This document shows positions 1 to 58,042 of a stretch of 64,000 nt of DNA, piece by piece. The notes beneath the pieces were generated by a model that had not been told where the DNA came from, made no database searches, and saw only the letters and a program-made list of their open reading frames with translations. Position 1 is the first letter of the stretch. Each line of letters opens with the position of its first letter. Both the position numbers and the translations under genes were made by a program. The stretch comes from a virus (taxonomy: Duplodnaviria > Heunggongvirae > Uroviricota > Caudoviricetes): the IMG/VR virus record IMGVR_UViG_3300034157_000063; one strand, 5' to 3'.

Positions 1-270
1 AACTAGATTATAACATTCATCGGATTGAAGAAGAACAGTTATCATCTATTAGTATTGATAATCAAGTCTTCAATAATGTTTCTCTTTTTGATGTTGTCTA
101 TTTGATTACTTCTGATACAGATCGTGTTCGATCTTTTACCTTATCTGATATTATTCAGACCTGTGGTTTTAGCTTTGATAGGCTGATTGGCAATAATATG
201 GAGCACTTCATGAACATTGAGAACATCTTTGATGAGGATGAACTGAAAGTCATTGAAATGGCTTATATCT
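1..270 (+). CDS. 3' end of a C-terminal 'xM-x-x-I' tail-family paralogue (partial, starts upstream of window)
   Basis: Reading frame into the window ends ...DELKVIEMAYI-TAA at 268-270, matching the family tail. Confidence 0.5.
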
Positions 271-276
271 AATCTA

Positions 277-1017
277 TTATCCAAATAAGTTGTCTATCTT
301 TTTGGCAAGATTTAATCTCATTTTTATGTTTTCATTGTATTCGCTTTTCATGAGTTCTTCTATTGAAAAATCATAAGCCTTTTCACGATCATTAAAGATA
401 TGATAACCTTCTGCTGGTGAGTAGTAATTGTCTGTAAATTTTAGATTTATCAGTTCTATATTGTCCACATTAAACGCTCTTATGTTAGTTTTTATGCTAA
501 TGTTGTTTTCATTATCGAAAAAAGGCGTCAAGGATTCTACATAAACAGTTTCAAGATTGATATTCGCTTTATTTCTTAAATCAACAATGTGGATGTAATC
601 ATGCACCTTCATTTCAGATTCATGTATATTAACCATCTTAGTTGTATCATAAATATAAATATCTTTTTTAAAGTAATCGTAGACTTTATTTAAATCTTGT
701 ATTCTGTCTTGATGGTATTTAATTTTATCTTTTTTGTCTTTATTTACAAGTGTTGATAAGAAACCTTTGCTCAATTGAGCTATTTCTTCACTGTGATAAT
801 CGACTAAATTTTTATGATCTTCTGTGATTAACGATTCAAATTCAGAAATAATATCGTTTATTAACCAAAATGAATTTTTATTACTGGATTGATGGCGTCC
901 AAACTTTTTCTCAATTTCAAAGATAATACCTTTTTCTATGCTGGCATGATATTTCACCACATAGTGAGAACCATATGCGTCAAATACGTCTGATAATTTA
1001 ACTTTTTTCATATTCAT
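277..1017 (-). CDS. hypothetical protein
   Basis: Track ORF 277..1041 starts on GTG. The in-frame ATG at 1017 is preceded by AAAGGA (SD). No family tail. Confidence 0.5.
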   Translation of the reverse strand: MNMKKVKLSDVFDAYGSHYVVKYHASIEKGIIFEIEKKFGRHQSSNKNSFWLINDIISEFESLITEDHKNLVDYHSEEIAQLSKGFLSTLVNKDKKDKIKYHQDRIQDLNKVYDYFKKDIYIYDTTKMVNIHESEMKVHDYIHIVDLRNKANINLETVYVESLTPFFDNENNISIKTNIRAFNVDNIELINLKFTDNYYSPAEGYHIFNDREKAYDFSIEELMKSEYNENIKMRLNLAKKIDNLFG

Positions 1018-1134
1018 GTTCAGTATCCTTTTATTAGGCACATGATAACAAATTAAAAAATAAAATCAACATTCCAATTGATTTATTAAGCAAAATAGTA
1101 TAATATACAGTGAATTATTGGGTGACCATTTTCT

Positions 1135-1905
1135 ATGAATACGATAAAACCTACCAACCTAGACGCAGAAATTGAATATCGTTATTTAGACACGCATGTT
1201 ATTAATGAAAATAATATGCATGAATACAAAGATAATTTCATTGAGATGTTGAAAGATTTTTCTCACATCATAAAATTTGAGTTTAAACGACCACAATTGA
1301 ATGACTTTCTATCATTAGTTGGATTTTCGTCTAAAGAAAACACGTTGAAATTTGATGACAACCAAGGATGTGAGATTGATTTAACTATTCTCGTTAATGG
1401 TGAAGTTGTACAAGATACCTATATCTTACAATGGGTTGAATTTACTAAGAATGATCGTCATGCTCACAGTTATTTTACATCTTACAATCTACAAGGTGTT
1501 GCTGTTTCTCGGACATTTAAATCAGCAAACAAAATATTGACAGGACTCACCCTTAAAACTATTCATTATATCATAGAACATGATACGCTTAAGATCGACC
1601 AAATTGGTTATTGTTTTAACGATAACAGAAAGTTACAAAAAGGGATTAATGGCTATGTAACAATGATCATTGAACATCCATTAAAAAGAATTGTTGAAAA
1701 TACTCAGTTATTTGACAATGTAAATGTCTATGATGTTTACTATACTGTACATGGGAAATCTAAAGAAATACGACTGATTGATATATTAACCCAGTGTGAT
1801 TTTAGTTGTGCTAGAATGTATGGCACTGATTACACTGATTTTCTTACTATGTCTAAAATGTTTACTAAAAGAGAGCGGGATATCATTGAGATGATGTATA
1901 TCTGA
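1135..1905 (+). CDS. tail-family paralogue (ends ...ERDIIEMMYI)
   Basis: 256-aa ORF. tAgTATAAT -10 at ~1096, SD GGGTGA. Shares the internal 'LQKGINGxV' motif with the next gene. Confidence 0.7.
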   Translation: MNTIKPTNLDAEIEYRYLDTHVINENNMHEYKDNFIEMLKDFSHIIKFEFKRPQLNDFLSLVGFSSKENTLKFDDNQGCEIDLTILVNGEVVQDTYILQWVEFTKNDRHAHSYFTSYNLQGVAVSRTFKSANKILTGLTLKTIHYIIEHDTLKIDQIGYCFNDNRKLQKGINGYVTMIIEHPLKRIVENTQLFDNVNVYDVYYTVHGKSKEIRLIDILTQCDFSCARMYGTDYTDFLTMSKMFTKRERDIIEMMYI

Positions 1906-1926
1906 ATACGATTTAGGGAGTGAAAT

Positions 1927-2706
1927 ATGCCAAAAGCTACTGAAGAAGATTACTTGTCTAGAATTGAATTTCATTATGTTGATCATTATTTAATTAATAA
2001 AGAAAACAGTGAAGCATATAAACCTCTGTTTATGAATATTGTTGAAAGTTCAAATTATTGCTTGCAGTTTGACTTGGACACCGATGAACTCAATCAATTT
2101 TTTAATGATATTGGGTTTGAAGTCAATGAAATTATTTATAGATACAGTAATAACAAAGGATGTGTGATTGAACTTGCGTCTGCAGTTGTTGATAAAAAAG
2201 AGCAATCTTATTTTGTAATAACTAACGCAGCCTTTGAAAAAGGAAGCGAATATTCTTTGTCATATACCATCAATTTTAGTTCATCTGGCTTACCACGGAT
2301 GATTAAATTTGCTAAACCTAAAAGATTATTAAAAGATCTTTATTTAAAAAGCATGTCATATGAAATTGATTCTACTACGTTTAAAATCGATCAAGTTTGG
2401 TACTTCTTGGAAGATTGCAGACCTCTTCAAAAAGGTATTAATGGTACCGTTCCTATAGTGGTTGAACGCCCCGTTAAAAGCATACTTCAAGAAGATGGAA
2501 CCACTTTACACGATATTAATATTTATGATGTCCATTACTTTGTGTTTAAGTCAGGTGAGCTGGAATCTATTTTACTGAGTGATATTCTTAACACATGTGA
2601 GATCAGTGTGACCAAAATGTATGGTAGTAGTTTTACTCATTTTTTAAGAACAAATAAGATGTTTAATAAAAGAGAGCTTGAACTTATCAGAATGTCTTAT
2701 ATTTGA
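1927..2706 (+). CDS. tail-family paralogue (ends ...ELELIRMSYI)
   Basis: 259 aa. SD AGGGAG. Tandem paralogue of 1135..1905. Confidence 0.7.
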   Translation: MPKATEEDYLSRIEFHYVDHYLINKENSEAYKPLFMNIVESSNYCLQFDLDTDELNQFFNDIGFEVNEIIYRYSNNKGCVIELASAVVDKKEQSYFVITNAAFEKGSEYSLSYTINFSSSGLPRMIKFAKPKRLLKDLYLKSMSYEIDSTTFKIDQVWYFLEDCRPLQKGINGTVPIVVERPVKSILQEDGTTLHDINIYDVHYFVFKSGELESILLSDILNTCEISVTKMYGSSFTHFLRTNKMFNKRELELIRMSYI

Positions 2707-5787: not shown

Positions 5788-6606
5788 ATGATTGAACTGA
5801 TGGCTAAACATTATAAATCTGGTTTTGATGATCAAGACATTAAACCTTTCATGAAATCATGCCTGAAAATGGTGGATAATGGTTTAGTGCTTCATAACTT
5901 ACCCAAAGTAACGAGAGATGGCATTGATTTTCAACTTGGATTTAATAAGGCATACACTGCTTTAATTAATAACATGGAGTATGAAGCCCCCTTCAGTCAA
6001 GAACAAATGTTCGAAATTTGCACTAATCTCTTCACAGTAATGTTTGATTATCGACTATTCACATCAGGTACTGGGTTTGAAAGCCGTTTTAAGACACCCC
6101 AACGGATGAGCAGCAAGCTATCCAGCTTCTGGTATGATAAACGATTTAATCGAATGACTGTGCCCGCTGAAATCTATGACGACCACGGCGATTATCGTAC
6201 AAACAGCACTATTCCAGTGTCGTTGACCTATGATATTATTTTTAATGAATACATTGCAGGCATTCAACATACGTTTCATACTCCAACCAAATTCAGTTCA
6301 GTAATGATGGGCCAGAAGAACCATCAAGAATTGATTATTAATTTTAGAAAACTGGCTAACGTTTTTTATTACAATGTAAAAATTATTAGTCTTGATGATA
6401 CAGATAAAGAAAAGATTCTTTTTACAACGTCTAAAACATTTGAAAAATTCGATGACTTCTTAACAGAGTTGACGTATGTGATTAAACGTGAACTGTTTAA
6501 CATTAACTATAAAGCTCGTTTTGAAGCATTCACTGGAACCACCATTGATTTTGAGAGCTTTGATGTAGACTCAATCAACACGCTTTTCGATATGATGAAA
6601 ATTTAA
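5788..6606 (+). CDS. tail-family paralogue (ends ...NTLFDMMKI)
   Basis: 272 aa, SD AGAGGG. Confidence 0.6.
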   Translation: MIELMAKHYKSGFDDQDIKPFMKSCLKMVDNGLVLHNLPKVTRDGIDFQLGFNKAYTALINNMEYEAPFSQEQMFEICTNLFTVMFDYRLFTSGTGFESRFKTPQRMSSKLSSFWYDKRFNRMTVPAEIYDDHGDYRTNSTIPVSLTYDIIFNEYIAGIQHTFHTPTKFSSVMMGQKNHQELIINFRKLANVFYYNVKIISLDDTDKEKILFTTSKTFEKFDDFLTELTYVIKRELFNINYKARFEAFTGTTIDFESFDVDSINTLFDMMKI

Positions 6607-8584: not shown

Positions 8585-8607
8585 AAAGCCTCTTCGGAGG
8601 CTTTTTT
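8585..8607 (+). terminator. rho-independent terminator
   Basis: AAGCCTC-TTCG-GAGGCTT followed by TTTTTT. Confidence 0.65.
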
Positions 8608-8659
8608 GTTGCTTATACATTTGAGACATGCTATAATCGGCCTATTATTGGGAGATGTT

Positions 8660-9523
8660 ATGCAATCTATTACAAACAGTCTACGGCCAGAAGAAATGGT
8701 TGCTAATCACATGCATCAAGCACTCAGTGCCCATGTAGCTATCAACATGCCATCAGAAGGCGGAAGTGTTCCCGGCACTTTTGGACAGTTTGAATTTAAA
8801 ATCACTGATACAGACAGTCACTTTAATGTTTTTATTCATAAAAATCGTGCAATCTTTAAAGTCGATCACTTTGTAAAAGAAGATCGTAATGAGTTTGAAC
8901 ACACTTTCTGCAAAGCCTTTAACATCAAAAGAGAAACTGTTGATAATGTGTTAAAAGCCTATCTTGACGTTGCTAAAAAAATGTCTTCATCTGGCATATT
9001 GTCTATTGTTAAAAATGATTTTGAACAAGTAGCTGCAAATCCAGTGGCTTATATTTCGTTTAAATCTAAATATGCCCAAGATGATGTATGTTGCCGGTGT
9101 AATATTGCCCAATTAAAATTCAATCAGGCTTATAAAAAAAATAAACGATACAGCCATATAAAGGTTTCTTTGATTAAAAGTCAACTTCATTTTTATATTG
9201 ATCAACACAACAACCTTAAACCCATATTTATTGTAGATACTTGGTTTGACCAAGACTATGCTGCCAGTTTTATTGTAGATGTTTACGCTGATCAAGTGTA
9301 TACCACTCGCCAAGTGTTTGCTGCTCGTTCTTATGAAGACCTTATTTCCATGTCTCGACCTGTCAACAAAGAACAATTGCCTGAACTTATGGAAGCCCAA
9401 TTTATTAGTAGGCTTCTGCCTGTCATCAAGAAACGTTATGGTTTGAAAAAAGACCAGATTGATTTAACTAATACTGAAATGCGAGATCGTTATCTTGCTT
9501 TATTGATGATGGAGTCCATATGA
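8660..9523 (+). CDS. tail-family paralogue (ends ...LALLMMESI)
   Basis: Track ORF begins at 8606, but TGcTATAAT (-10) lies at ~8627. The ATG at 8660 has a GGGAGA SD. Confidence 0.6.
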   Translation: MQSITNSLRPEEMVANHMHQALSAHVAINMPSEGGSVPGTFGQFEFKITDTDSHFNVFIHKNRAIFKVDHFVKEDRNEFEHTFCKAFNIKRETVDNVLKAYLDVAKKMSSSGILSIVKNDFEQVAANPVAYISFKSKYAQDDVCCRCNIAQLKFNQAYKKNKRYSHIKVSLIKSQLHFYIDQHNNLKPIFIVDTWFDQDYAASFIVDVYADQVYTTRQVFAARSYEDLISMSRPVNKEQLPELMEAQFISRLLPVIKKRYGLKKDQIDLTNTEMRDRYLALLMMESI

Positions 9524-10158: not shown

Positions 10159-10725
10159 ATGACTATTGAAACTTATAAATTTACTGACGATACTGTCTTT
10201 GAAGCTCTTCAAACTTTTTGTTTGATTAATTCTATCAAAAAGGAAGAGTTCTGTGCAGCACTTCCAGAGATTATGACTCGTGAAATTATTTTTGATAATC
10301 AAACTATTTCGATGGGGCATTGTTTCAAAATAAAATGGAACCATCCGTTTTGTGAGCCGTTGTCTAATTATTTAGAACACCGTTATACATTTGAGAGCCG
10401 ACTCGAAAAAGCACTGACTTGTTATGATGACGTTTTTAATAATCATCCAAGAAAAGACTGTTATTATGTTAATGGACATTATGCTTTTGATATGGATGAA
10501 AGACTGAGAAAAGTTTATTCATTTGATTTTACTGAAGCTGATACAGGGCATGATTATATGAGGCTTCTTGAATTCGATGACAGTGATTTAGTCTCATTGG
10601 AAACTAGAATTTTTGATTACTATTTTCATTATTTTGGCAACTCCAACACACCAGAAGAGTTAAAAAGACCATTAAGTCAATTATCAAAAGAAGAAATATC
10701 GTTACTTCAAATGATTCATATCTAG
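10159..10725 (+). CDS. tail-family paralogue (ends ...EISLLQMIHI)
   Basis: 188 aa. Confidence 0.6.
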   Translation: MTIETYKFTDDTVFEALQTFCLINSIKKEEFCAALPEIMTREIIFDNQTISMGHCFKIKWNHPFCEPLSNYLEHRYTFESRLEKALTCYDDVFNNHPRKDCYYVNGHYAFDMDERLRKVYSFDFTEADTGHDYMRLLEFDDSDLVSLETRIFDYYFHYFGNSNTPEELKRPLSQLSKEEISLLQMIHI

Positions 10726-10791
10726 CTAGATTGTGTGGATTTTTTGTTATTACAATGCTATAATAGCTCATCTATTTTAAAGGTGTTATTG

Positions 10792-11355
10792 ATGATGATT
10801 GAAACCAAAGAGTTCTCACATGACTTGATTTATGATCAGGCCCAAGATTTCTTCCTTTCGAAAGGAATTAATAAAAAATCTTTTAGACTATCACGTCCGC
10901 ACCTTGTTCATCAACAAAATCTAGTCGATCATATAACACTTGAAGAAGGCGAAGCGTTTGGCATTAACCCAGAACATTACGCTTGGAGTGATTTTTTAAA
11001 ATATCTTGAAGAAAAATATTCATTTGAGTCCAAGCTATATAACATCATTAAAGATTATGATGAATTTTTCAATCCTGAAAAAAATGATGAATGTTATAAT
11101 GAGTATGTTTATTATTTTATCAATACCTCTGGCACTATTCAAAAGGTTCATGTATTCGAATTCGTGGAGCTTGAATATGGTGATTATCACATGTCTCTTT
11201 TTGAGGTAAATGATAGCAATATTGAAGAAATGGAAAGACAAGTATTAGATTATTACATTAGTTATTTTGGTAAACCGATTCCAGAAGAACTGATCAAACC
11301 CTTTGCAAGCATGACACCTGAAGAACGTGAAGTCATTCGCATGATTTGCATTTAA
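10792..11355 (+). CDS. tail-family paralogue (ends ...EREVIRMICI)
   Basis: TGcTATAAT at ~10757 lies inside track ORF 10735... The ATGATG at 10792 has an AAAGGTG SD. Confidence 0.6.
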   Translation: MMIETKEFSHDLIYDQAQDFFLSKGINKKSFRLSRPHLVHQQNLVDHITLEEGEAFGINPEHYAWSDFLKYLEEKYSFESKLYNIIKDYDEFFNPEKNDECYNEYVYYFINTSGTIQKVHVFEFVELEYGDYHMSLFEVNDSNIEEMERQVLDYYISYFGKPIPEELIKPFASMTPEEREVIRMICI

Positions 11356-17376: not shown

Positions 17377-17409
17377 AAAAAAAGAACTGCATAGACAGTT
17401 CTTTTTTTT
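17377..17409. terminator. bidirectional rho-independent terminator
   Basis: AAAGAACTG-CATAGA-CAGTTCTTT followed by T8. Confidence 0.65.
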
Positions 17410-32577: not shown

Positions 32578-32997
32578 ATGAATCAAATTGTTATTTCAAA
32601 AACATTTACCCATCATGGTAAAAATAGCGAAGCTTCAGTGATTGTTATTGAATCTAATCATTCTGTTATTGAATTTGATAATTTATTTAGAAATGCTTTG
32701 TTTACTTTTATTACTCGTTGGCGAGATCTTTATGATCAAGTCCAGCAAGATTTGAGTGTTTGCCAGAAACTTGAAGAAGGCATGACAGGTTATGATGAAG
32801 CATTGAAAGCATTCACGCATTCATTTGATGAACAAATTAACTTTGAGACGAACCATTCAGTCTTTGTTCATGGGTCTTTTAAAATTGCACTGGATTCCTT
32901 TATTGTTGCTAGTGAAATTTGTGATTTCAGTGTCCTTTCTTTGGTAGATTGGATTTCTATTAAAACAGCAGAATCCAGTGTAGGTTTTAACTCGTGA
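32578..32997 (+). CDS. hypothetical protein
   Basis: 139 aa. TGtTATAAT promoter, SD AGAGAGA. Confidence 0.5.
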   Translation: MNQIVISKTFTHHGKNSEASVIVIESNHSVIEFDNLFRNALFTFITRWRDLYDQVQQDLSVCQKLEEGMTGYDEALKAFTHSFDEQINFETNHSVFVHGSFKIALDSFIVASEICDFSVLSLVDWISIKTAESSVGFNS

Positions 32998-33002
32998 GTA
33001 CA

Positions 33003-45849: not shown

Positions 45850-46598
45850 ATATGAATGATTTATGTGATTCAATTATAGCCAAAATAAAGCCATTTTTTG
45901 AAGAAAATGTACTCGAACCTGTCTTTTTCCAGAAACGGACTAAGGGAGATGTAGGTAGTCATAATGTTTTTCCTGATGTTCGTGTCCTCACTGCTTCAGG
46001 AGGCATTATTTTCAGTTTTATTCTTGAATCGACAAGTGACGCTAAAAGACATTCAATTAATATAGTGATTGGTGACCAAAAGTATTTAGATATCTACAAT
46101 TTATTTGTAAAAGAATGTTGTGTTGATGGTTTTGATTCCTTTTCATTGTTTATTGATGCTATGATTAAAAAAAGCGATCATTTAAAATTTATTAAAGCTG
46201 TCAACATATTACAAGATTCCAAGACAATTGAGTATTCATCAAGTTTGCATGGTGTTATTGATCAACAAACCTATGCAATACTTGAAACTGCTTTTGAGAC
46301 TATTGAAATAAAACAAAGACCTCTCTTTATTTTTGAAAATAACAAATTCTATCTTAATCCAGAATTTATATTTACATTGGATTGTGGTAAATTAAAACTC
46401 ATCAAGAAAACAGAAAATAATGATAAATACATTAAGGATTATGTTTCAAAATGTGCTGATTTATTCTATACACAATATTTGAAATATATACAATCTGCAC
46501 TGAGTGATCTCTATGATATTCCAGTGGATGAGATTTCTAATTGGTCGCCAGAATTATTGATGTCTTATTATCCTGTATTAGCAATGGAGGTTTGTTAA
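45846..46598 (+). CDS. tail-family paralogue, 'YYPVL(A/S)(M/I)E' subgroup (ends ...YYPVLAMEVC)
   Basis: 250 aa. ATGA overlap. Confidence 0.65.
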   Translation: MNMNDLCDSIIAKIKPFFEENVLEPVFFQKRTKGDVGSHNVFPDVRVLTASGGIIFSFILESTSDAKRHSINIVIGDQKYLDIYNLFVKECCVDGFDSFSLFIDAMIKKSDHLKFIKAVNILQDSKTIEYSSSLHGVIDQQTYAILETAFETIEIKQRPLFIFENNKFYLNPEFIFTLDCGKLKLIKKTENNDKYIKDYVSKCADLFYTQYLKYIQSALSDLYDIPVDEISNWSPELLMSYYPVLAMEVC

Positions 46599-47357
46599 AT
46601 GACAACAGAACAATTGATTGAGAGCATGAAGTCAGTTTTAAGCTTGTTTGCTGCTCAACATCTTAATTATCCTGTTATGTTTAAGTCGTCATTAAATAAT
46701 ACTAAGCCTAATGGCATTTCTTTTGATATTTTACATATGCAATCATCTACAGGACAACTTTTATTGTCTTTTATTATTATGAAAGACAGGAGGATCTATG
46801 ATCAAAAGTTTAAATCTATCGAAGTAAAAGTCCACGATGAAAAACATTTAAACATATTGAATAAATTTATAGCTGTGTGTAGTCAATACAGTTCTAATTC
46901 ATTTAATTTATTTATGAATGAAACACTTGAACATACCGATCATTTAAAATTAATAACCGCTATTGATGTATTGCCATTTGAGGAAAGGAAGATTATTGTA
47001 GATGATAAGTATATTAGAGTGGATTTTACTGTCCATGCTATTATGACGACACCTTTTGAAGTCATCAATATTTATAAGATACCTAAATTTATTTTTGAGA
47101 ATAATAAATTTTACTTACATGATAAGTTTAGTTTTACTTCACTAGGTCAACACTATACGTTTACTCAAAAAACAGAAGACGTAGATGTTATGCAGGTTGA
47201 AGTTAAAGAATTCGCTCAGAAATTTTATGAAGATCACTATGAAATCATTACTTCGAAGATTAATGAACTGTATGATGTGCCTTTTACTGAATTTGGCCTT
47301 TGGACTGATGAACAGTTCCGGGCTTATTACCCCGTATTGTCAATGGAACGTTATTAA
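46599..47357 (+). CDS. tail-family paralogue (ends ...YYPVLSMERY)
   Basis: 252 aa. GGAGG SD sits inside the upstream gene's 3' end. Confidence 0.65.
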   Translation: MTTEQLIESMKSVLSLFAAQHLNYPVMFKSSLNNTKPNGISFDILHMQSSTGQLLLSFIIMKDRRIYDQKFKSIEVKVHDEKHLNILNKFIAVCSQYSSNSFNLFMNETLEHTDHLKLITAIDVLPFEERKIIVDDKYIRVDFTVHAIMTTPFEVINIYKIPKFIFENNKFYLHDKFSFTSLGQHYTFTQKTEDVDVMQVEVKEFAQKFYEDHYEIITSKINELYDVPFTEFGLWTDEQFRAYYPVLSMERY

Positions 47358-47375: not shown

Positions 47376-48140
47376 ATGAATGATAATGAATTATGTCAAG
47401 CAATGATCGCAGAATTAAGACCTTTCTTTGAAAAAAACATGAAAGGTTCTGTTATTTTTCATACCCGCACTGGATTGGGACAGTATGCTGGTGGTCGAAC
47501 CATTTGTTGCATAGATGTCAATACGAGTAAAGCTAAGCCTATTTTTCGATTTACTATCAATAACAATATTGAAAAAGGCGATTATGTAGTAAATAATATT
47601 GATTTAGAGATTGATAACAAAAAATATTTGCCACTTTATAATAAGTTTATTAAACACTGCAGTGAACAAAGCACAGATTCTTTTTCATTATTTATGAAAG
47701 CTGCTAGTGAATACAGTGAACAACTAAAAATTATCTCAAAAATAAATGTTTTACCTTTTGCAAAAAGAACATTAAAATTTGGCTCATGGAAAACTCTCAT
47801 GATGGATACAACTCTTCATGCCGAAGTCACAACACCTTTTGAGACTTTCAAAGTTTACAAAAGATCTAAATTTATATTTGAGAACAATCAATTTTATCTT
47901 AATGATGAATTTCACTTCATATCATTTGGCATGGATTTTTGGTTTCAGAAGATCACTGAGCAGGATAGTTTAGTTAAAATGCAGTTGCATACTTTTGCCA
48001 CTCAATTTAATGACCTCCATCAGACACAAATTTTAGGCACAATCATTCGTTTATACAATTTACCTCACACCGAAGTTAATGCGTTCAGTAACGAACAAAT
48101 TATGAGTTACTATCCAGTTTTGGCTATCGAACACTATTGA
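47376..48140 (+). CDS. tail-family paralogue (ends ...YYPVLAIEHY; Met replaced by Ile)
   Basis: 254 aa. Shares 'IFENN(K/Q)FYLN' with the previous two genes. Confidence 0.65.
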   Translation: MNDNELCQAMIAELRPFFEKNMKGSVIFHTRTGLGQYAGGRTICCIDVNTSKAKPIFRFTINNNIEKGDYVVNNIDLEIDNKKYLPLYNKFIKHCSEQSTDSFSLFMKAASEYSEQLKIISKINVLPFAKRTLKFGSWKTLMMDTTLHAEVTTPFETFKVYKRSKFIFENNQFYLNDEFHFISFGMDFWFQKITEQDSLVKMQLHTFATQFNDLHQTQILGTIIRLYNLPHTEVNAFSNEQIMSYYPVLAIEHY

Positions 48141-48178: not shown

Positions 48179-49459
<1,281 letters not shown>

Positions 49460-50293
49460 GTGTCTAAACTCAATTCAAAAGAAATCTGCCAGCCACTGTT
49501 GGATCATGCTAAAACAGTGCTGTCGGATGGTTTGGATCGCCCTTTTGAACAATACACTGTTGATTATGGACATGATGGTTTTTCAATTTTTAAAAACAGA
49601 AAGACAGGTTACAAATCGAGTGCTTACAACATCCTTAATGCCTATGTGCTACCTTGTAAAAATGGTAACTTCTTAAAAGTAGGCATGGATGGTTCTATTG
49701 ATGACTATAATAACCTTTATTCAACACTTTTTAAAGATCCTATTGTTGATGAAGTGTACCTTCAAGCTGTTATTCAGAAGTTTTTTGATGCCGGGTTAAG
49801 ATGGAACCAGTTTGATTCTGTGGAATACTATCCAAAAGATTTATCCATTGATTCGTTAACTTCTGACGACCATCATCGTAGGAAATCGACTAATAAGAAA
49901 CATTTGGCTATGTTCTATTACTCAGCTCGTAGTCGTAAAGCTGAACAACGCCGTCGATTCAGTAATAGAAAAAGTAAAGCAGCCTATTCAGTCTGTACAA
50001 TGAGTTTGAATATGTCTACTTATACAGGTGAATTGAAGCCTGTTTATGTTTTGAACATACCTTTATTAGCCGATATTAAATTTTCTATTATGGTTGATGC
50101 TAATACTGGCATCAGTGAAGATGATATACAATTGTTGGTTTATAAATATGAACTATGCATTCGCACTCAATTGTATGACATCATTAAACGTAATCTTAGG
50201 CTTAAAGATCATGAATCACTAGGTGAAGTAACCGAATACTCTATGCAACAACTCGTTGATTATGTCATTGTGACAGAAATGGCTTCTTATTGA
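49460..50293 (+). CDS. tail-family paralogue (ends ...VIVTEMASY)
   Basis: GTG start immediately after the serS TAA, with GGAG 6 nt upstream inside the serS 3' end. Confidence 0.55.
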   Translation: MSKLNSKEICQPLLDHAKTVLSDGLDRPFEQYTVDYGHDGFSIFKNRKTGYKSSAYNILNAYVLPCKNGNFLKVGMDGSIDDYNNLYSTLFKDPIVDEVYLQAVIQKFFDAGLRWNQFDSVEYYPKDLSIDSLTSDDHHRRKSTNKKHLAMFYYSARSRKAEQRRRFSNRKSKAAYSVCTMSLNMSTYTGELKPVYVLNIPLLADIKFSIMVDANTGISEDDIQLLVYKYELCIRTQLYDIIKRNLRLKDHESLGEVTEYSMQQLVDYVIVTEMASY

Positions 50294-50344: not shown

Positions 50345-51109
50345 ATGTCAACTTTATTAGACAATGCTACGTTTATTAAAAACAATATTGTAAAATTTAT
50401 TGTTGATGTTTTAGTTCGTGAATTAGATTCCTTTTCCATTGAAGACAATGCGTATCAAACAGGATCTATCATTACCTGTCACTACAAAACAGAAAAAGGT
50501 AAATTGCACTCTATTTCTGCAGATTATTTACACAGCACCACCCAAGAAATTAGCCTTAAATGCAGTGCCAACCCCGGACTGCTTAGAGATTTCTATTGGT
50601 TTTTTATGTCTAAACAAGAAAATGAACAATTACATCTGATTAAAGACTCTATTGACGCCATTCTTAGTGAATTTCAGGTAGGTGCTGTGCATATGAAATT
50701 TAATGCCCAACCTATGGGTGAGATTTACCATGATAAAAAAAGAAAAATTAAATATTGTGTTCATAAGGAAATGTTTCAAGGTAAAATTTCATTTGAAAGT
50801 CATTTTAATAAATTTTCTTTCATGAATGCACGTCTTAAAAGCAAACCTTATTACTATTTGGATGGCTCCGTATTAAAATCTAGCAAGATGATTCAATTTA
50901 TTATTACGGCTCAATCATTTTCTCTTGATTTAAAAGATGATGAAGATTTTTTGAATAGAGTTAATACAATGTGCAGCAACATTTACCCTGTTGTTTTAAA
51001 AAACGCTTCATCTACTATTTCAGAAAAATTTTGTCTTGATGATATAACCTGTTTTTCTGAGGATGATATTAAAGGTTATCTAACACTTATGACTATGGAA
51101 AACATTTAA
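50345..51109 (+). CDS. tail-family paralogue (ends ...LTLMTMENI)
   Basis: 254 aa. TGgTATAAT promoter, SD TGGAGA. Confidence 0.6.
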   Translation: MSTLLDNATFIKNNIVKFIVDVLVRELDSFSIEDNAYQTGSIITCHYKTEKGKLHSISADYLHSTTQEISLKCSANPGLLRDFYWFFMSKQENEQLHLIKDSIDAILSEFQVGAVHMKFNAQPMGEIYHDKKRKIKYCVHKEMFQGKISFESHFNKFSFMNARLKSKPYYYLDGSVLKSSKMIQFIITAQSFSLDLKDDEDFLNRVNTMCSNIYPVVLKNASSTISEKFCLDDITCFSEDDIKGYLTLMTMENI

Positions 51110-51921
51110 TGAACACATTCACAAACATTGATACCATTAAAGAAGCATTCCGTTTAATGCTAGGTGATGATTATTCTCTTGATTTTTATGAAGACCAAAA
51201 GACATTTTATTTGTTTAATAATATGACAATGAGTAAAGTGCTTAACTTTGAATATGACAATGAGACTCGTAAATTTTCTTACTACAAATTAACAGATTCT
51301 GATTTTCGTGAGACAGCAGACTCTATTTTTACACAATTTGATAGCTTTAAGACGTGTCAAATGATTTCAGACAGTTTCTTTAATAATGAGCTTTCAAAGA
51401 TTATTTTTAAAGACCCTATTTTCTTTGATTCTGATACTTTCAATAGGTCGAAAATAGTAGGCAAAAGAATAACGCTCTCGCCTATTTTCTATTACATGAA
51501 TGCATGGAACATGTTGTTTGTCGAATTAGGTTATGTGGTGACAGAAGATTTTAAAATTAAACCCATTATTGATCTGTGTATCAATTTACGTGGATTTGGA
51601 AAAACTCGATTCTTGGTTGATGAAGATTCTGGGCAGTTTGTCAATTTGTTGGATACTAATCATTATAGATTACATACTGATAATCCGGCTCTGAGCACAA
51701 CAACCATCAGTATTATTTCATCAGCCGACATCGTGAGAAATGTGGCTATTAATAAAAACCCGAATTTAGTTGGACTTAATGATTATATTAATGACTTCAT
51801 GAATAAACTAACCCCTGAATTATACAATTTCTATGTCAATCAATTTAATGTGGTTGGCAGTAGCAGTGAAGCTAATGGTTCGATTAATGATTTTAAAGTA
51901 TTGGAGATGTTAAAAGTATGA
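51109..51921 (+). CDS. tail-family paralogue (ends ...FKVLEMLKV)
   Basis: 270 aa. TAATG overlap. Confidence 0.6.
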   Translation: MNTFTNIDTIKEAFRLMLGDDYSLDFYEDQKTFYLFNNMTMSKVLNFEYDNETRKFSYYKLTDSDFRETADSIFTQFDSFKTCQMISDSFFNNELSKIIFKDPIFFDSDTFNRSKIVGKRITLSPIFYYMNAWNMLFVELGYVVTEDFKIKPIIDLCINLRGFGKTRFLVDEDSGQFVNLLDTNHYRLHTDNPALSTTTISIISSADIVRNVAINKNPNLVGLNDYINDFMNKLTPELYNFYVNQFNVVGSSSEANGSINDFKVLEMLKV

Positions 51922-52697
51922 CAAATAAAAAAGAAGTCAATCACCTTTTGGTCATTAAGAAAGATTTTAGTCAACTATTGAAAGAAAAATTTAATCTTGA
52001 TGTGATTGGAACCAACATTAAACATAAAGTCGATATGTGTCAGTCTGATGTCATTAAATTTACTGTGTTCGTCAGTAATGAGAACAAGTTTATTTATGTC
52101 TATGTTAATCGACAAGATAAAAAGACTATTCACATTTCAACGGATATTAATGAAACCTTTCTTGATGAGCTATCCCAACTGTTTATGCATAAAGATGCTG
52201 ATTCATTCATCAAAAATTTCAATAGGGGGTTTTTAGACTTTACTACCAAATACAGTTTATTAAAGTCTTCAGATTTTAATGATGAACCCTTCTTTAAGTC
52301 ACAGTTTGGTTTCATTAGATCGTACAGCTCGCATTCTTATTTTTATGCAATGAGAACCTATTCAAACCATTTTTTGAATACTAAATTATACAAAATTCAA
52401 AATTCGATGATCATGATGACCACTAAATTGATGTTTAACTATCATAATGGTGCATTTACTGCCTATCCTTATCTTAAAATTAAGTTTGGTTCTATTGAGC
52501 ATGATGTTCATTTGTCTAGTGCTCACACTATGCAGAACAATCTGGCTGGCTTTTTGATGAAAGTTAAAAATGAAATCGATCCAACGGTGAAAAATCTTTT
52601 CAAAAAGTTATTTGACATTGATGACGCAGGTTTTAACGCTCTCAATAAAGAATCTTTTGAAGACCACCTTTCGATCATTGCAATGAACCATATTTGA
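51918..52697 (+). CDS. tail-family paralogue (ends ...HLSIIAMNHI)
   Basis: 259 aa. ATGA overlap. Confidence 0.6.
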   Translation: MTNKKEVNHLLVIKKDFSQLLKEKFNLDVIGTNIKHKVDMCQSDVIKFTVFVSNENKFIYVYVNRQDKKTIHISTDINETFLDELSQLFMHKDADSFIKNFNRGFLDFTTKYSLLKSSDFNDEPFFKSQFGFIRSYSSHSYFYAMRTYSNHFLNTKLYKIQNSMIMMTTKLMFNYHNGAFTAYPYLKIKFGSIEHDVHLSSAHTMQNNLAGFLMKVKNEIDPTVKNLFKKLFDIDDAGFNALNKESFEDHLSIIAMNHI

Positions 52698-52712: not shown

Positions 52713-53627
52713 ATGAAAAATATTGATCTAACAGCCTTACTTAATAGTATCAACAGTGGTGCTGTCAAAGTGACAACTTTTAATCAATCAAAAAAGGACA
52801 ACAAAGAAAAACAAGAGGCTGCTATGAAAGAATATGAACCACTTATAAAACAAGTTAGAGCCATACTGGTTGATAAATATGGATCTAAGCATTACCCCCT
52901 TGAAAGTAATGATACTTATCAAACGTGTGGATTCAGAATGATACTTGAGTCTGGTCCTAAATTCTCTGATAATAAATACTTACGAGTTTATAACAATGTG
53001 TATGATGGTCAATCTGTTTATTCAATTTTTAATGATAAGATTGATAAAAGCAAAGTTGTTCTGACTTTATTTGAACAGTTGATGGCCGGTCGTGATTTTC
53101 CATCTTACATTATGGACACTGTTATTGATCGTTATATTAAAGAGACTAATGAATTTGAATTCTTTTCTCACTTTGAAAAAAGTGTCACTCCACAACAGTT
53201 AAAAGATTTTTTTGTAAAGACTAAAACCTACAAAGACACAAAAGAACAACGTTTGTGTAAATCTTATTATGGTTATCTTTCAAAAGCTGAAAATTCAAGA
53301 AAACAAACGAGCTTTTCATTTTCTCCATCCAAAGTAGAAATTGTATTGATGAGAGATAGTCAAGGGGCATTCGTGCCGGGTTTTTTGTTTAACCTTCCCG
53401 TCCTATCAACTTTAAAATTTAAGTATGCAGTGCCTATGTTTTCTGATAATATGGCAGTATCTATTGATGAGTTATTTGAGAAATTTAATGCCAAATTCAT
53501 AAAGTGTGTTGTTGATATTATTGGTCGAGCTGAAAACTTAAAATTGAAGGAGAAAAAATTAATGATGACCTTACCAAGAGCAGAGTTGATTGGTCGATTG
53601 AAAGTGACTGAGATGTTGACGTATTAA
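52713..53627 (+). CDS. tail-family paralogue (ends ...RLKVTEMLTY)
   Basis: 304 aa. Confidence 0.6.
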   Translation: MKNIDLTALLNSINSGAVKVTTFNQSKKDNKEKQEAAMKEYEPLIKQVRAILVDKYGSKHYPLESNDTYQTCGFRMILESGPKFSDNKYLRVYNNVYDGQSVYSIFNDKIDKSKVVLTLFEQLMAGRDFPSYIMDTVIDRYIKETNEFEFFSHFEKSVTPQQLKDFFVKTKTYKDTKEQRLCKSYYGYLSKAENSRKQTSFSFSPSKVEIVLMRDSQGAFVPGFLFNLPVLSTLKFKYAVPMFSDNMAVSIDELFEKFNAKFIKCVVDIIGRAENLKLKEKKLMMTLPRAELIGRLKVTEMLTY

Positions 53628-53629
53628 CA

Positions 53630-54421
53630 ATGTCAAACATTAATCAGACGTTTCTTGACGCTGTTTCTAAAACCTTTGATGGTCATTTTGTTTCGGCCAC
53701 ATTTTTAAACAGTTCAACGCTTTCGTTAACTCATCAGAACAATGAGCCAGTTGCCTTGTTAAATTTTCATGGGAATGTTCTTTCGCGTTCAGTTTTTTAC
53801 AAGGAAGATGTCTATTTATCATGTATTCCAGATATTATGTATACCCGAGAAGAAAATAAGTTACTCAAAAAAGCATTTTCATCTTTTTGTTTGAATGAAG
53901 CCCTTGTTCATATGATTAAAACTAAGGGTGAGTTTGATTTAAAATCCATTCATCGAGTTGTTACTGTTAATCAGCGAGTCGAGCATATGTTTTATAATTC
54001 ATGCACATTATCAGATATAGACCTTTATCATTCACCGAAAAGACATAACTTCTATTATTCTTATGACAAGCGAATGGTGTTAGACAATTCTGGTAATTTT
54101 CGACCCATCTTAGTGTTGGACATCTCTTTAAAACAAAAGACCTATTCAATTTTACTATCGCCTGAACTCAATAAAGCAGCAAATATTTCAACCTTTAGTG
54201 GAAACAATGCGGATAGGTGTTTTCTGACCTTTGAACAATTATTCGATAATGGTGTTGAAATTAATGATTTAAAGACTTCGATTGATAGTAATTGGACATA
54301 CGATATTTTCTTTTACTATATTGATAGTCTCCTTAACGATAGGAAACTGGTTGAGAGTATTTTTGACAGTTGTTCTAATTACGCTGAAATGATGAATTTG
54401 GTTGAAATGAATCGTATATAA
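53630..54421 (+). CDS. tail-family paralogue (ends ...MMNLVEMNRI)
   Basis: 263 aa. Confidence 0.6.
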   Translation: MSNINQTFLDAVSKTFDGHFVSATFLNSSTLSLTHQNNEPVALLNFHGNVLSRSVFYKEDVYLSCIPDIMYTREENKLLKKAFSSFCLNEALVHMIKTKGEFDLKSIHRVVTVNQRVEHMFYNSCTLSDIDLYHSPKRHNFYYSYDKRMVLDNSGNFRPILVLDISLKQKTYSILLSPELNKAANISTFSGNNADRCFLTFEQLFDNGVEINDLKTSIDSNWTYDIFFYYIDSLLNDRKLVESIFDSCSNYAEMMNLVEMNRI

Positions 54422-54454
54422 TGTTATACTCATTCATTATTTTTGGAGCTTATT

Positions 54455-55252
54455 ATGGAAAATTTTCGAAATGCTGTTTCTGGGGCATTTAATACCAAAA
54501 CAACACAAACAACATTTTTTGAATATGAGCAATATCCTATGATGGACACTCATGTTCATATTATGCTTAAAAAAGATAAAAACCCCATTAATATAGATAA
54601 AATATTTTTAAGTTTCGGCATTTCACCGGGACAACCTCTTTTCCATTCAATTTGTCTCAAAGATCTTATTTATATAGACAAGTTTAATCAAATGTTTCAA
54701 ATGCATAAAAACTCAAGAAACGATTTTAATTTTATCAATGATTATCTTAATTCTTTTCATAAAAACTCTAATTTCTCAAAATTATTGAGAATTGATTATG
54801 ATATAAAATCTCACGAATTTTATACTTTTAAAAAATTATATATGTTAGAAAAAGACGAGTCTAAATATGGTATAACATCTTGTGTTAATAAGTCTTACAG
54901 AAGTGTTGCACAATATGAATTTATTAAAAACTTTTCAATAACCCGTGATGGAGTAATAGCTCTGTTTCCAACTGTTCATTTTTTTAAGCATGTTAATCCA
55001 TTTTCATTATATTTTAGCCTGTCTGATAAAAAAGTTTATAAACTTCCAGAAAGTTTTGAAGGCTTAGTGACCTTGGAAGATATTGTAGAAGCCAGCACCC
55101 TTTTTACCGATCATGATATTGATGTTTTTACAGATGAAATATTGATGATGTATGTGTGTAATCTTCATAATGGATTTTATCAAGAATTTCTAGATATCCC
55201 ACAAGAAAATATTTCTGATAAGATAGATTTATTACTAATGACCGCTATTTAA
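54455..55252 (+). CDS. tail-family paralogue (ends ...KIDLLLMTAI)
   Basis: Track start 54443 is TTG. The ATG at 54455 has TGGAGC 6 nt upstream. Confidence 0.6.
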   Translation: MENFRNAVSGAFNTKTTQTTFFEYEQYPMMDTHVHIMLKKDKNPINIDKIFLSFGISPGQPLFHSICLKDLIYIDKFNQMFQMHKNSRNDFNFINDYLNSFHKNSNFSKLLRIDYDIKSHEFYTFKKLYMLEKDESKYGITSCVNKSYRSVAQYEFIKNFSITRDGVIALFPTVHFFKHVNPFSLYFSLSDKKVYKLPESFEGLVTLEDIVEASTLFTDHDIDVFTDEILMMYVCNLHNGFYQEFLDIPQENISDKIDLLLMTAI

Positions 55253-55376: not shown

Positions 55377-55979
55377 TTAAATTCTTGCCATTTTTAATAG
55401 GTCGAAAGTATCATCATTGAAATCTCCAATGTTTTTAATTTCAACATCAATTGTTTGTTTTACCATTTCTTTAAACGCTGGATAAATAATATTATCATAT
55501 AAAGATTTAAAACTATACTCAGTATTTTTTGCTTGAATGGTGCATTCCATCATAGGGCCAAGTGGAATTTCAAGACACAAATTAGAGAGTATACTCTCTG
55601 GTTTATGATTAACATCCAATTTCTTTACAGGTTCTCGTTTAATATAGGTAGCGTCGAGATCCCGAATGCTGACTGAGAATCCAGTTGGGTTTATAGTGTA
55701 AAGTATATATTCTAAATAAGCATATATTTTAAAAATATCCACAATTTTTCCGAAATATGGATCTTTTATAGTTTCTAACAATGTATTAAAGAATTCGTCA
55801 GCATTATTTTTATTGATAACAAAAAGACCTTTAATAATCCTAATTTCATTAATATTACTTAAATTTTCTCTACTCCCACTAGAACCTTCAGCGAGTTCTT
55901 CATAGGTTTTGCAAATACGCACATTAATAGCTTTTTCTTTTAATTTATCAATTGTTTCTTGACATGTTAGCCATTTCAT
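55377..55979 (-). CDS. tail-family paralogue (ends ...TFDLLKMARI)
   Basis: Start chosen at the second ATG, which has GGAGTGG upstream. Confidence 0.55.
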   Translation of the reverse strand: MKWLTCQETIDKLKEKAINVRICKTYEELAEGSSGSRENLSNINEIRIIKGLFVINKNNADEFFNTLLETIKDPYFGKIVDIFKIYAYLEYILYTINPTGFSVSIRDLDATYIKREPVKKLDVNHKPESILSNLCLEIPLGPMMECTIQAKNTEYSFKSLYDNIIYPAFKEMVKQTIDVEIKNIGDFNDDTFDLLKMARI

Positions 55980-56125
55980 AAGCCACTCCATTAAATAATT
56001 ACACCAAGTATATCAAAATTAGTAATTGAGGTAAAGTTTTATTTTTTTCAATTTAATGGTTGATGTTGAAGTGAAATATTGATACAATAGTGGCCTACTT
56101 AAATGATGACTAAGGAAGCGTACAG

Positions 56126-56326
56126 ATGAAACATACCTATCTATTTTGTGGCAAAATGTATTCAATTAGTGGCAATTTGTATAAGCTGGTATCTGTATTG
56201 AGTTATGGTTCTGGTTTGCTTCGTGGTGTCCAACGTTATATTTTTGAACCTGAAAATAAATCACTTCCTGTTCTTCGTACTACTCGCTGGGCTGATGGTG
56301 AGATTGGGCGAATTTCCCGTTATTAA
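56126..56326 (+). CDS. small hypothetical protein (66 aa)
   Basis: SD AGGAAG. Weak. Confidence 0.3.
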   Translation: MKHTYLFCGKMYSISGNLYKLVSVLSYGSGLLRGVQRYIFEPENKSLPVLRTTRWADGEIGRISRY

Positions 56327-56409
56327 AAATAATATTATGAAAATCATTGCTTTACAATACTTTCAAAATGTACTATAATTCACTCATTCATAACGCTTAG
56401 GAGCAATAA

Positions 56410-57294
56410 ATGTCTAAAGAAATTCGTTTCAAAACAGAAATCAAAGATCTGAACCGTGAACTTCTTAAAAAAATTGAAAGCAAAGAAGTTCGTCGTCAAA
56501 TTAAAGAAAACTCGAAAGATGCCAACATTTTTGTAATTCGTTTTAATTCAGACGATAAAGGGAATGCTTTTGAAAAACTGGAACGTGATGTGGACATGAC
56601 TATTCTTAACTCAGAACGTAGTGATGCTGTTTATATGATTATTAAAAGTCCCGGTGGTAGCGTAACTGCTTATGCAAACGCTGCACAGCAAATCAATCGA
56701 CTTCGTGCTCACGGTTTGCATGTTACTGGGTTTGTGGATGAAGTCGCTGCAAGTGGTGGTTATATGATGGCTTCTGTGTGTGACCGCATTGTTGCTCAAC
56801 CTTTTGCTTTTGTTGGTTCTATCGGCGTTGTTTCGCAAGTGCCTATCTTTGAAGAAGTTTTGAACAAAATCGGTGTTGATGTTCGAGTTTATACGGCTGG
56901 TGTTAATAAGCGTTCAGTAGTTCCAACAAAAACGCCAACTGAAGCAGACGAAACTGTTTTTAAACAAAAGCTTGTTGATATTCATACCGCGTTTAAAAAT
57001 CACGTATTGAAATATCGCCCAATGATTAACCCTGAGAAGTTGATGGAAGGTGATTTCTACATGGCTCAAGATGTTTTGGCTGAAAAACTGGTTGATGAAA
57101 TTGGTGATAGTCGCACGGCTATTCTGAAAGCGTTTAAAGAAGGTTCTAAAATGTATCAAGTGAACACTGACGTAAAAGCGAAAAGTGGTGGTATTGCTGG
57201 ACTGTTTGGTCTTGATACCATTTTGGAGACATCCATCAGTAAAGCAATTGATAAACTGTTTTCAATGTCTCACCCAAATGAAAGCATTCGTTAA
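56410..57294 (+). CDS. S49-family (SppA/SohB-like, ClpP-fold) serine peptidase
   Basis: 'YMIIKSPGGSV' and 'VDEVAASGGYMMASVCD' match the S49 catalytic-Ser and Lys regions. SD AGGAGC. Confidence 0.7.
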   Translation: MSKEIRFKTEIKDLNRELLKKIESKEVRRQIKENSKDANIFVIRFNSDDKGNAFEKLERDVDMTILNSERSDAVYMIIKSPGGSVTAYANAAQQINRLRAHGLHVTGFVDEVAASGGYMMASVCDRIVAQPFAFVGSIGVVSQVPIFEEVLNKIGVDVRVYTAGVNKRSVVPTKTPTEADETVFKQKLVDIHTAFKNHVLKYRPMINPEKLMEGDFYMAQDVLAEKLVDEIGDSRTAILKAFKEGSKMYQVNTDVKAKSGGIAGLFGLDTILETSISKAIDKLFSMSHPNESIR

Positions 57295-57358
57295 TTGTTA
57301 AATTTTAAAATATCTCTTAGGAGATATTTTTTTATTGCTAGTGTTAAGGAGTATCGAA

Positions 57359-58042
57359 ATGACAGCAAAAACTAATCAAGACATTATAAGAGAACATCTT
57401 TTAACAGACCTTTCAGAATTGTCAGATGCAGATTTTCGTCATTTTGATAGTTTGTTTGATATGGGTGATCATATTAATAAATATGCTTACCCAACATTGA
57501 AATATGATTTTAATGGTTCTGGTTTTATTTATCTGCTTGGAGCGAACAACCAAAAGTACGCGATTGGACACTACACGTCAAACGCCTTTGAGCTAAATAT
57601 CTGTGTTCCTTTTATTTTTATGAAGCGAATAACCATCAACAAACTTAATTCGTTTAATATTTCGCCACAACGTGAGCAAATCATATCAAAAAACCTCATA
57701 TTTTTAGATAAAATGTTTTATTATTTTAAAGGTTATGAAATTATTAATTCAATAGGATTAAAATTTACAGACACTGGTATTTTGAGGTTTGGAACTCATT
57801 TTATTAGATACAAGAACACATTTACTGTAGCACTAAATAATCAGTCATTACGATTTGATTATAATTATATTCTTTATGAGAAAAAAGGAGCTGTTGAATA
57901 TTTCATCGGCAGTATTCATATTCAAAAATTTAGGACGGCCTTAGAAAATTATCTAAGTGAACATACGGTTCCTTTGTTCAATAAAAAATTTAGTAAATTG
58001 ACAAAAAAAGAACTTTTACTTTTAAAAATGTGTAATATTTGA
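57359..58042 (+). CDS. tail-family paralogue (ends ...ELLLLKMCNI)
   Basis: Track start 57335 is TTG. The ATG at 57359 has AAGGAG upstream. Confidence 0.6.
   Translation: MTAKTNQDIIREHLLTDLSELSDADFRHFDSLFDMGDHINKYAYPTLKYDFNGSGFIYLLGANNQKYAIGHYTSNAFELNICVPFIFMKRITINKLNSFNISPQREQIISKNLIFLDKMFYYFKGYEIINSIGLKFTDTGILRFGTHFIRYKNTFTVALNNQSLRFDYNYILYEKKGAVEYFIGSIHIQKFRTALENYLSEHTVPLFNKKFSKLTKKELLLLKMCNI

Follow-up and report, generated by a model that had tools for sequence, protein, structure and literature searches.

The stretch of DNA analysed here, which we refer to as the window, comprises 64,000 nucleotides (nt) of the viral record IMGVR_UViG_3300034157_000063 (Caudoviricetes), and about 44% of it is taken up by genes, treated here as a family, whose products share a C-terminal tail. 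In a six-frame scan for open reading frames (ORFs) the tail was found in 37 complete ORFs of 188-305 amino acids (aa), which sum to 27,855 nt. In these ORFs it has the form M-x-x-[I/Y/V/C/Q]-stop, with Ile instead of Met in a single case (AIEHY), and the consensus that summarizes the family is [LVI]-h-x-M-x-x-[IYV]-stop, where h is a hydrophobic residue. A thirty-eighth tail, EMAYI, belongs to a member truncated by the left edge of the window. The full-length copy of this member lies on L036, a metagenomic contig that overlaps the window, and is one of four members found in the 10 kb to the left of it, which brings the total to at least 41 copies in 74 kb of window and left flank. The initial annotation of the window had proposed at least 38 members with a near-invariant tail, and all 38 of the tails it listed were recovered.

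The members and their coordinates are listed in Table 1. There are 24 co-directional junctions at which one member is followed directly by another, with gaps of -11 to +53 nt, and five of these are ATGA overlaps. Hydrophobicity of transmembrane strength is absent: the maximal Kyte-Doolittle mean over 19 residues is at most 1.63 in the members, and the only value above 1.5 falls in a doubtful, TTG-extended N-terminus, whereas real membrane proteins of the same window reach 2.1-3.0. The earlier statement that the members lack transmembrane segments therefore stands, and the blocks LQKGINGxV, RYPLxxDG and IFENNxFYLN, which had been quoted as marks of sub-families, were also confirmed in the member sequences. 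The pattern [LM]-[TSN]-x-x-E-[RK], said to precede the tail, is present in about 10 members but does not hold as a family-wide feature.

Table 1. Family members in the window. Coordinates are from the six-frame ORF scan; pairs and triplets were defined by BLASTP.
Position	Strand	Product	Tail	Remarks	Basis or comparison
2..272	+	C-terminal about 90 aa	EMAYI	cut by window edge; stop 270-272	full copy L036 8329-9138, 269 aa
1135..1905	+	256 aa	EMMYI		BLASTP pair with 1927-2706
1927..2706	+	259 aa	RMSYI		BLASTP pair with 1135-1905
5788..6606	+	272 aa	DMMKI		ORF scan
8606..9523	+	at most 305 aa	MMESI	TTG start doubtful	L036 gene, 287 aa
9520..10143	+	207 aa	LMYII	ATGA overlap with preceding member	ORF scan
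10159..10725	+	188 aa	QMIHI		pair with 10735-11355
10735..11355	+	at most 206 aa	RMICI	GTG start doubtful	L036 gene, 187 aa; pair with 10159-10725
12138..12872	+	244 aa	KMTYY		triplet with 12907-13602 and 13606-14274
12907..13602	+	231 aa	RMVYY		triplet member
13606..14274	+	222 aa	KMYYY		triplet member
14284..14904	+	206 aa	IMFYQ	last residue atypical	ORF scan
17408..18196	-	262 aa	EMIYI		pair with 18193-18921
18193..18921	-	242 aa	EMTYI	ATGA overlap with next member	pair with 17408-18196
22793..23455	+	220 aa	EMSTI	solitary; hairpin after gene	ORF scan
24707..25585	+	292 aa	DMIMI	solitary; just 3' of tRNA pair	ORF scan
28521..29414	-	297 aa	DMATI	solitary	ORF scan
32994..33728	+	244 aa	SMEKI		ORF scan
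33730..34431	+	233 aa	AMDTI		ORF scan
34431..35204	+	257 aa	EMSLI		ORF scan
35201..36034	+	277 aa	DMHII		ORF scan
42047..42661	+	204 aa	EMIEV		orthologues in L004, L012, L013, L017
42651..43472	+	at most 273 aa	EMLVI	TTG start uncertain	ORF scan
43482..44225	+	247 aa	KMIKI		ORF scan
44279..45088	+	269 aa	DMAKI		ORF scan
45115..45849	+	244 aa	EMHKI		ORF scan
45846..46598	+	250 aa	AMEVC	in triplet sub-family	ORF scan, BLASTP
46599..47357	+	252 aa	SMERY	AlphaFold model 2, pLDDT 88.5	ORF scan, model
47376..48140	+	254 aa	AIEHY	Ile for Met; orthologues likewise	ORF scan
49460..50293	+	277 aa	EMASY	start abuts SerRS stop codon	ORF scan
50345..51109	+	254 aa	TMENI	AlphaFold model 1, pLDDT 63; orthologue alignment A2	ORF scan, model
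51109..51921	+	270 aa	EMLKV		ORF scan
51918..52697	+	259 aa	AMNHI		ORF scan
52713..53627	+	304 aa	EMLTY	remote relative of 49460-50293	profile comparison
53630..54421	+	263 aa	EMNRI		ORF scan
54443..55252	+	269 aa	LMTAI		ORF scan
55377..55991	-	204 aa	KMARI		ORF scan
57335..58042	+	at most 235 aa	KMCNI	L004/L005 orthologue without stop, +5 residues	ORF scan

The tail at the protein and DNA levels

Counted back from the C-terminus, Met at -4 combined with Ile, Val or Tyr at -1 is expected 0.46 times in 80 ORFs, given the amino-acid composition of the long ORFs, and was observed at least 35 times, an enrichment of about 80-fold over chance. The information content is 4.8 bits at -4, 2.6 at -1, 2.3 at -7 and 1.5 at -10, and a weaker signal extends to about -22. 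Among the 37 complete members the last residue is Ile in 26, Tyr in 7 and Val in 2; position -7 is occupied by Leu (20), Val (12) or Ile (4), and position -10 most often by Tyr (15) or Glu (9). The hydrophobic positions are -10, -9, -7, -6, -4 and -1; hydrophobic residues fill six or seven of the last ten places. Acidic residues are found upstream, with Glu or Asp at -5 in 17/37, Glu at -15 in 13/37 and Glu or Asp at -22 in 21/37.

The codons behind these conserved residues vary. Position -7 is encoded by CTT, TTA, GTA, ATC, GTT, GTC, CTG and TTG, position -1 by ATT, ATA, ATC, TAT and TAC, the codons at -6 likewise vary synonymously among members, and all three stop codons (TAA, TGA and TAG) are used; the DNA 3' of the stop is unrelated from one member to the next. 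A repeated DNA element, which the initial annotation had named among the findings that would overturn its claim, is ruled out by this variation and by the unrelated flanks. Among the paralogues the tail is the most conserved segment, and together with the synonymous variation this upholds the proposal that selection acts on the C-terminus itself, at the level of the protein.

A local effect of the DNA was seen where genes are tightly coupled. Runs of purines (GGA/GAG) occur in the last six codons of 11 of the 12 tails that have the next gene at most 3 nt away, compared with 3 of the 25 others. In coupled tails such as those of 51109-51921, 45115-45849 and 34431-35204, the Shine-Dalgarno sequence of the downstream gene lies inside the tail codons (GAG-ATG, ATG-GAx), so the acidic residues beside Met are partly dual-coded as the ribosome-binding site of the next gene, and this dual coding biases -5 and -3 toward Glu or Asp. 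The start-stop overlaps described earlier are thus present, but they account only for the purine-rich codons beside Met and not for the motif, and a Shine-Dalgarno or re-initiation signal was rejected as its origin except for the local effect on the -5 and -3 codons. The chance that the whole tail is a nucleotide-level signal (a repeated DNA element, or a Shine-Dalgarno or re-initiation signal) and not a protein feature is negligible: the purine runs speak for it, and Met has one codon, so that -4 alone cannot separate the two levels, but the 25 uncoupled members, some of which stand before terminator-like hairpins, conserve Met, -7 and -1 just as well, many different codons, synonymous or conservative, serve at -7, -6 and -1, and the hydrophobic periodicity spans at least 10 residues.

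Two further candidates were considered for the tail. A T4-type prohead-protease site (L-x-E, with cleavage after Glu) was rejected because Glu occupies -5 in only 12/37. About 10 tails, of the form L-T-x-x-E-x-x-h-h-x-M, resemble the first helix of the LuxR/sigma region-4 helix-turn-helix, but there is no Pfam match and the chain ends where the turn would start.

Probable common ancestry, predicted fold and conservation

All-vs-all BLASTP joins the members into pairs and triplets only, as had been described for the highly diverged bodies of the family, and body identity between paralogues is about 10%. When hidden Markov models lacking the tail were iterated against the window ORFs and decoys, no sub-family gained members, and comparison of tail-less profiles of orthologue groups linked, beyond the known triplet, only the members that begin at 49460 and 52713. 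When profiles of the terminal 70 residues were compared, 34% of family pairs gave alignments that kept the register up to both C-termini (24-62 columns, probabilities of at most 61%), as against 0% of pairs with a non-family protein. These in-register alignments indicate that the conserved unit is a module of about 30-60 residues, made up of a long helix, a linker and the tail, and not just the last seven residues.

AlphaFold models of two members (model 1, 50345-51109; model 2, 46599-47357) have the same order of secondary-structure elements, namely an N-terminal helix, four strands, two helices, about nine strands, a helix of about 30 residues and one or more terminal helices; with the tails removed, the hhalign probability between the two proteins is below 1%. 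Model 2 has a mean predicted local distance difference test (pLDDT) score of 88.5 and a predicted template-modelling (TM) score of 0.80, and model 1 has a pLDDT of 63. Residues 201-250 score 88-96 in model 2, the C-terminal part is the best of model 1 at 76-86, and over residues 241-250 the values in the two models are 88 and 76. The tail is predicted to be an ordered helix that is continuous with the confidently modelled helical module, and the conserved terminal helix that had been offered as a side option fits both models.

From the shared element order and the in-register C-termini we read the members as one ancient family, and the best explanation of the data is a family of soluble cytoplasmic alpha/beta proteins, about 190-305 aa long, that is restricted to this lineage. 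The comparison of predicted folds that had been recommended for several members gave the same element order in both models; the fold of the family as a whole is an extrapolation from these two and may apply to the remaining members.

By Pfam, PHROGs, PADLOC, PDB-profile, BFVD and phage searches the family and its fold are new. No Pfam family was common to more than one of the 37 members (best single E-value 0.0014), and PHROGs and PADLOC returned one marginal match each for the same set. PDB sequence profiles gave no match for the family, and Foldseek against BFVD gave TM-scores of at most 0.27. Nothing was found at E <=0.01 when 11 concatenated members were compared by tblastn with 50,697 phage records, megablast of 24 kb against the phage collection produced no match, and no relative was detected when GTDB species representatives were scanned with the family. 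Among 1.84 billion cluster representatives, a profile built from a single orthologue group retrieved orthologues from this lineage only.

Other metagenomic contigs carry the same array in the same order, and each member has a 1:1 syntenic orthologue. Orthologues are 45-85% identical in the family and 91-96% identical in the seryl-tRNA synthetase (SerRS) embedded in the array. In L017, which represents a distant lineage, the family is 28-38% identical, neighbouring genes 48-67% and SerRS 75%, and most tails persist at this overall identity of about 30%. Mean pairwise identity within orthologue groups is 0.79 over the last ten residues and 0.59 over the body, which places the tail at a mean 86th percentile of 10-residue windows. 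Of 112 distinct homologues found in related genomes, 99 have Met at -4 and 10 have Ile; Leu, Val and Phe never occur there, and the other three homologues have shifted or truncated ends. The position of the stop is kept in 38/38 members here and in 105/112 homologues. In a single related genome, represented by L004/L005, the orthologue of 57335-58042 (16987-17688) has lost its stop and five residues have been added after the tail (…LLKMYNIGHSLS), and this loss provides a natural test case for the importance of a free C-terminus.

These comparisons describe an old family that is inherited stably and evolves fast under purifying selection but is not hypervariable; fast evolution with 1:1 synteny is a pattern that fits interaction or accessory proteins. 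The initial annotation had included among its options hypervariable structural paralogues of a phage-like element. The phage-like gene setting is plausible, but a hypervariable set is contradicted by the syntenic orthologues. Its other option, an immunity or defence repertoire, fares no better. Polymorphic-toxin immunity arrays are also tandem, co-directional runs of small, diverged, soluble proteins, but they mix unrelated families, adjoin toxins and turn over fast, whereas the array described here has one predicted fold in two models, stable 1:1 synteny, no PADLOC hit and no toxin domain among its neighbour genes.

Genomic setting of the array

The proteins of the window are encoded on a Joint Genome Institute contig of 1,917,244 bp, and syntenic relatives are found on contigs of 1,843,594, 1,851,360 and 1,859,102 bp, so that four independent assemblies fall between 1.84 and 1.92 Mb. 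A more distant relative is a viral contig of 437 kb in IMG/VR, and the L017 lineage spans 437-604 kb. A literature search for phages above 1 Mb gave nothing relevant, and the largest phage genome it returned is 841 kb; if viral, the present replicon would be more than twice that size. Expression signals are of the bacterial kind, with a Shine-Dalgarno-like 4-mer before 46 of 74 window genes (11.6 expected) and TATAAT boxes upstream of many of them.

Three aminoacyl-tRNA synthetases are encoded within the 64 kb. The threonyl-tRNA synthetase (14949-16127, minus strand, 392 aa) covers only positions 173-535 of a 565-position model, and the missing N-terminal part would be the TGS/editing region. 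SerRS (48188-49459) lies inside the array, and the GTG start of the member that follows it abuts its gene with zero intervening bases, a junction that is kept in every related contig examined. The tyrosyl-tRNA synthetase (62517-63791) is at most 44% identical to GTDB proteins, the matches being to scattered phyla, and gives no taxonomic placement. Genes for tRNA-Pro(TGG) and tRNA-Lys(TTT), about 50 nt apart at 24456-24658 (plus strand), stand directly upstream of the solitary member 24707-25585.

The gene content resembles that of phages, notably in the ligase, the shortened threonyl-tRNA synthetase, the nucleotidyltransferase and the polynucleotide-kinase-like and R2K ATP-grasp proteins. The NAD-dependent ligase scores 365 bits with a phage profile and 311 bits with the cellular LigA model, below the 444-bit cut-off of the latter, and a Pol-beta-type nucleotidyltransferase in the window has homologues in jumbo and huge phages. 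A NUDIX hydrolase is found in syntenic loci. Within the array, 56410-57294 (plus strand) encodes an S49/SohB-type serine peptidase that is soluble, with an N-terminus that is not hydrophobic, and whose alignment with the SohB model starts only at position 65; it scores 215 bits as cellular SohB and 110 bits as a prohead protease, and matches phrog_53 with E = 5e-31. An HflK-like protein and a Bax1-I protein are also encoded in the window, and just to its left are genes for a polynucleotide-kinase-like protein, an R2K ATP-grasp protein (phrog_7313) and a DsbA-like protein. Overall we lean towards a very large phage-like replicon, with a reduced bacterium as the alternative.

The window holds further paralogous groups. 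Six tandem paralogues of 142-153 aa at 36548-39348 (minus strand) each have a hydrophobic segment (Kyte-Doolittle mean 2.1-2.7), and several end in a W-x-Y-Y-L-like region; this second expanded family, of membrane proteins, is conserved in L032 and L033. Three paralogues at 23514-24281, 26511-27251 and 27413-28426 (minus strand) share the C-terminal block SGPNPN[FY][DE]Y..ICRVK, two of them have signal-peptide-like N-termini, and none matches Pfam or PHROGs. Positions 1934-6093 of L017 contain four tandem genes ending in Y.YFYY..CRKP[VI]. Two large paralogues of 715 and 648 aa, at 39458-41605 (minus strand) and 58082-60028 (plus strand), lie on either side of the main array, one on each strand; neither matches a known family, and their sole outside similarity is a weak one to the huge phage LR756502 (E = 3e-5).

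Possible roles of the tail

Our preferred reading, which we put forward tentatively, is that the bodies diversify while the tail stays fixed, as a handle with both a structural and a docking role. The tail would be the largely hydrophobic helix with which the C-terminal helical module ends; this module would close the fold and present one invariant interface around Met -4 and the carboxyl end at the terminal Ile or Tyr. This interface could contact a shared partner or other members of the family, while the bodies would be free to diverge and supply different specificities, in the adaptor/cargo logic of multigene families of large viruses. The hydrophobic pattern is too dense for a free amphipathic helix, and so the tail probably packs on the body. 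Across about 150 sequences only Met or Ile occurs at -4, which is unusual for a plain core position, and together with the fixed chain end in the 38 paralogues this suggests a specific contact at the end of the helix; from this we infer an intermolecular interface and a common partner.

Expanded families that join a diversified body to a short, conserved terminal motif occur in large viruses and in host-associated bacteria. A comparable arrangement exists in poxviruses, whose ankyrin-repeat proteins combine a variable body with a C-terminal PRANC/F-box-like docking motif. As in those families, dozens of diverged, arrayed paralogues with quickly evolving bodies are found here in a large, AT-rich, virus-like genome, and a short C-terminal helical motif is the sole family-wide constant. 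The two have no sequence or fold relation, however; the body here would be a novel alpha/beta fold and not a set of repeats, and the expression signals are prokaryotic.

Several points weigh against a docking handle. The shared partner is hypothetical, and the high tail pLDDT in monomer models fits purely intramolecular packing equally well. The proposed contact at Met -4 is suggested by the conservation of this residue. Two of the 38 members were modelled, and the fold of the rest is extrapolated from their length, their in-register C-termini and their similar N-terminal helices. Lastly, a few L017 tails have one or two extra residues or Ile for Met, so a free carboxylate at a fixed position is not absolutely required.

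A purely structural role is possible, if somewhat unlikely. In that case the tail would belong to the protein core, as the helix by which the C-terminal helical module is locked to the sheet; it would be the sole segment that can still be recognised because it accepts the fewest substitutions, and the bodies would have drifted or become sub-functionalised with no shared partner. The ordered, high-pLDDT helix of the monomer models and the largely hydrophobic character of the last ten residues are what such a helix should look like, occasional extensions of 1-5 residues are tolerated, and the orthologue groups contain other segments conserved to about the same degree as the tail, which stands at the 86th percentile and not at the 100th. 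Core sites normally exchange Leu, Ile, Val, Met and Phe, however, and -4 takes Met or Ile only; nor does this role readily explain why the chain ends exactly three residues after Met in 38 paralogues whose bodies are so diverged.

It is improbable that the tail is a loading signal for a particle or compartment, as it might be if the members were carried inside the capsid of a very large phage or ejected from it, or were the cargo of a protein shell. The phage-like context is suggestive, as is the S49 peptidase of the array, which also matches profiles of phage head-maturation proteases, and a terminal helix behind a linker of variable length recalls encapsulation peptides; the cargo peptides of encapsulins and microcompartments, and phage targeting sequences, likewise join a terminal amphipathic helix and a variable linker to unrelated-looking bodies. 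Yet the roughly 84 kb of window and flanks yielded no recognisable gene for a capsid, portal, scaffold, encapsulin or microcompartment shell, and SohB is a better-scoring match for the peptidase than the prohead protease. The peptides of encapsulins differ in consensus and become ordered only on binding, and the capsid-targeting sequences of T4 internal proteins are N-terminal and removed by cleavage.

The initial annotation had leaned towards a repertoire of secreted effectors in which the tail acts as a type IVB-like C-terminal translocation signal, a reading that we now regard as very improbable. A family of many rapidly evolving paralogues, hydrophobic at -4 and with acidic positions further upstream, does recall the Dot/Icm signals of Legionella and Coxiella, where a large, fast-evolving set of substrates has a hydrophobic residue near -3/-4 and acidic residues within about 25 residues of the end. 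A large set would also be plausible if the replicon were a host-associated bacterium, and cell-envelope genes (SohB-like, HflK-like, Bax1-I and DsbA-like) are near. Against this, the tail is predicted to be an ordered helix (pLDDT 76-96 over the last 55 or so residues) and not disordered and polar, and its Met and end position are far more invariant than those of Dot/Icm signals. Dot/Icm substrates are unrelated to one another, whereas here the two models share a topology and the C-terminal modules of many members can be aligned in register. Components of type IV (IVB included), type I and type VI secretion systems were sought with Pfam, NCBIfam and PHROGs in the same 84 kb and none was recognised, and the context is phage-like, with a relative listed as viral in IMG/VR and several neighbour genes that match jumbo phages best.

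A degradation tag or a protease-adaptor tether for timed turnover, read by ClpXP, Lon, a tail-specific protease or the S49 peptidase, is scarcely credible. The non-polar extreme C-terminus, its fixed end position and the conservation of the S49 peptidase in the array (86-90% identity among close relatives) would suit such a role, but known degrons are short and exposed, whereas this tail lies within a confidently folded helix, and the peptidase is tied to the family by adjacency alone. We know of no similarity between the tail and the ssrA-type LAA end or other known C-terminal degron motifs. Clamp and adaptor tails, such as the ClpX-binding tail of SspB, the bacterial QL[SD]LF motif and the PCNA-interacting-protein (PIP) box Qxx[LIM]xx[FY][FY], are also short, extreme C-terminal motifs with hydrophobic residues at i, i+3 and i+6 (-7, -4 and -1 here), and the centre of the PIP box allows Met. 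The first position of the tail described here is not Gln, an aromatic pair is missing, and the motif lies in a folded helix and not in a flexible end. Neither the PIP-box nor the QL[SD]LF consensus was found in the 37 tails, where -7 is Leu, Val or Ile and never Gln and -1 is mostly Ile. No genome with more than 40 clamp or ClpX binders is known to us.

A bolder proposal can be made, although we consider it unlikely: the family may be the cargo or adaptor repertoire of an undescribed, virus-like replicon of about 1.9 Mb with bacterial expression signals, and the Met helix may be a new targeting handle, read by a dedicated hub for packaging, export or proteolysis that would deliver dozens of activities. 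A common interface on many diversified bodies is the logic of effector, cargo and adaptor repertoires, and no such motif has been described. The partner of the tail could show how a genome of this kind organises a large accessory proteome.

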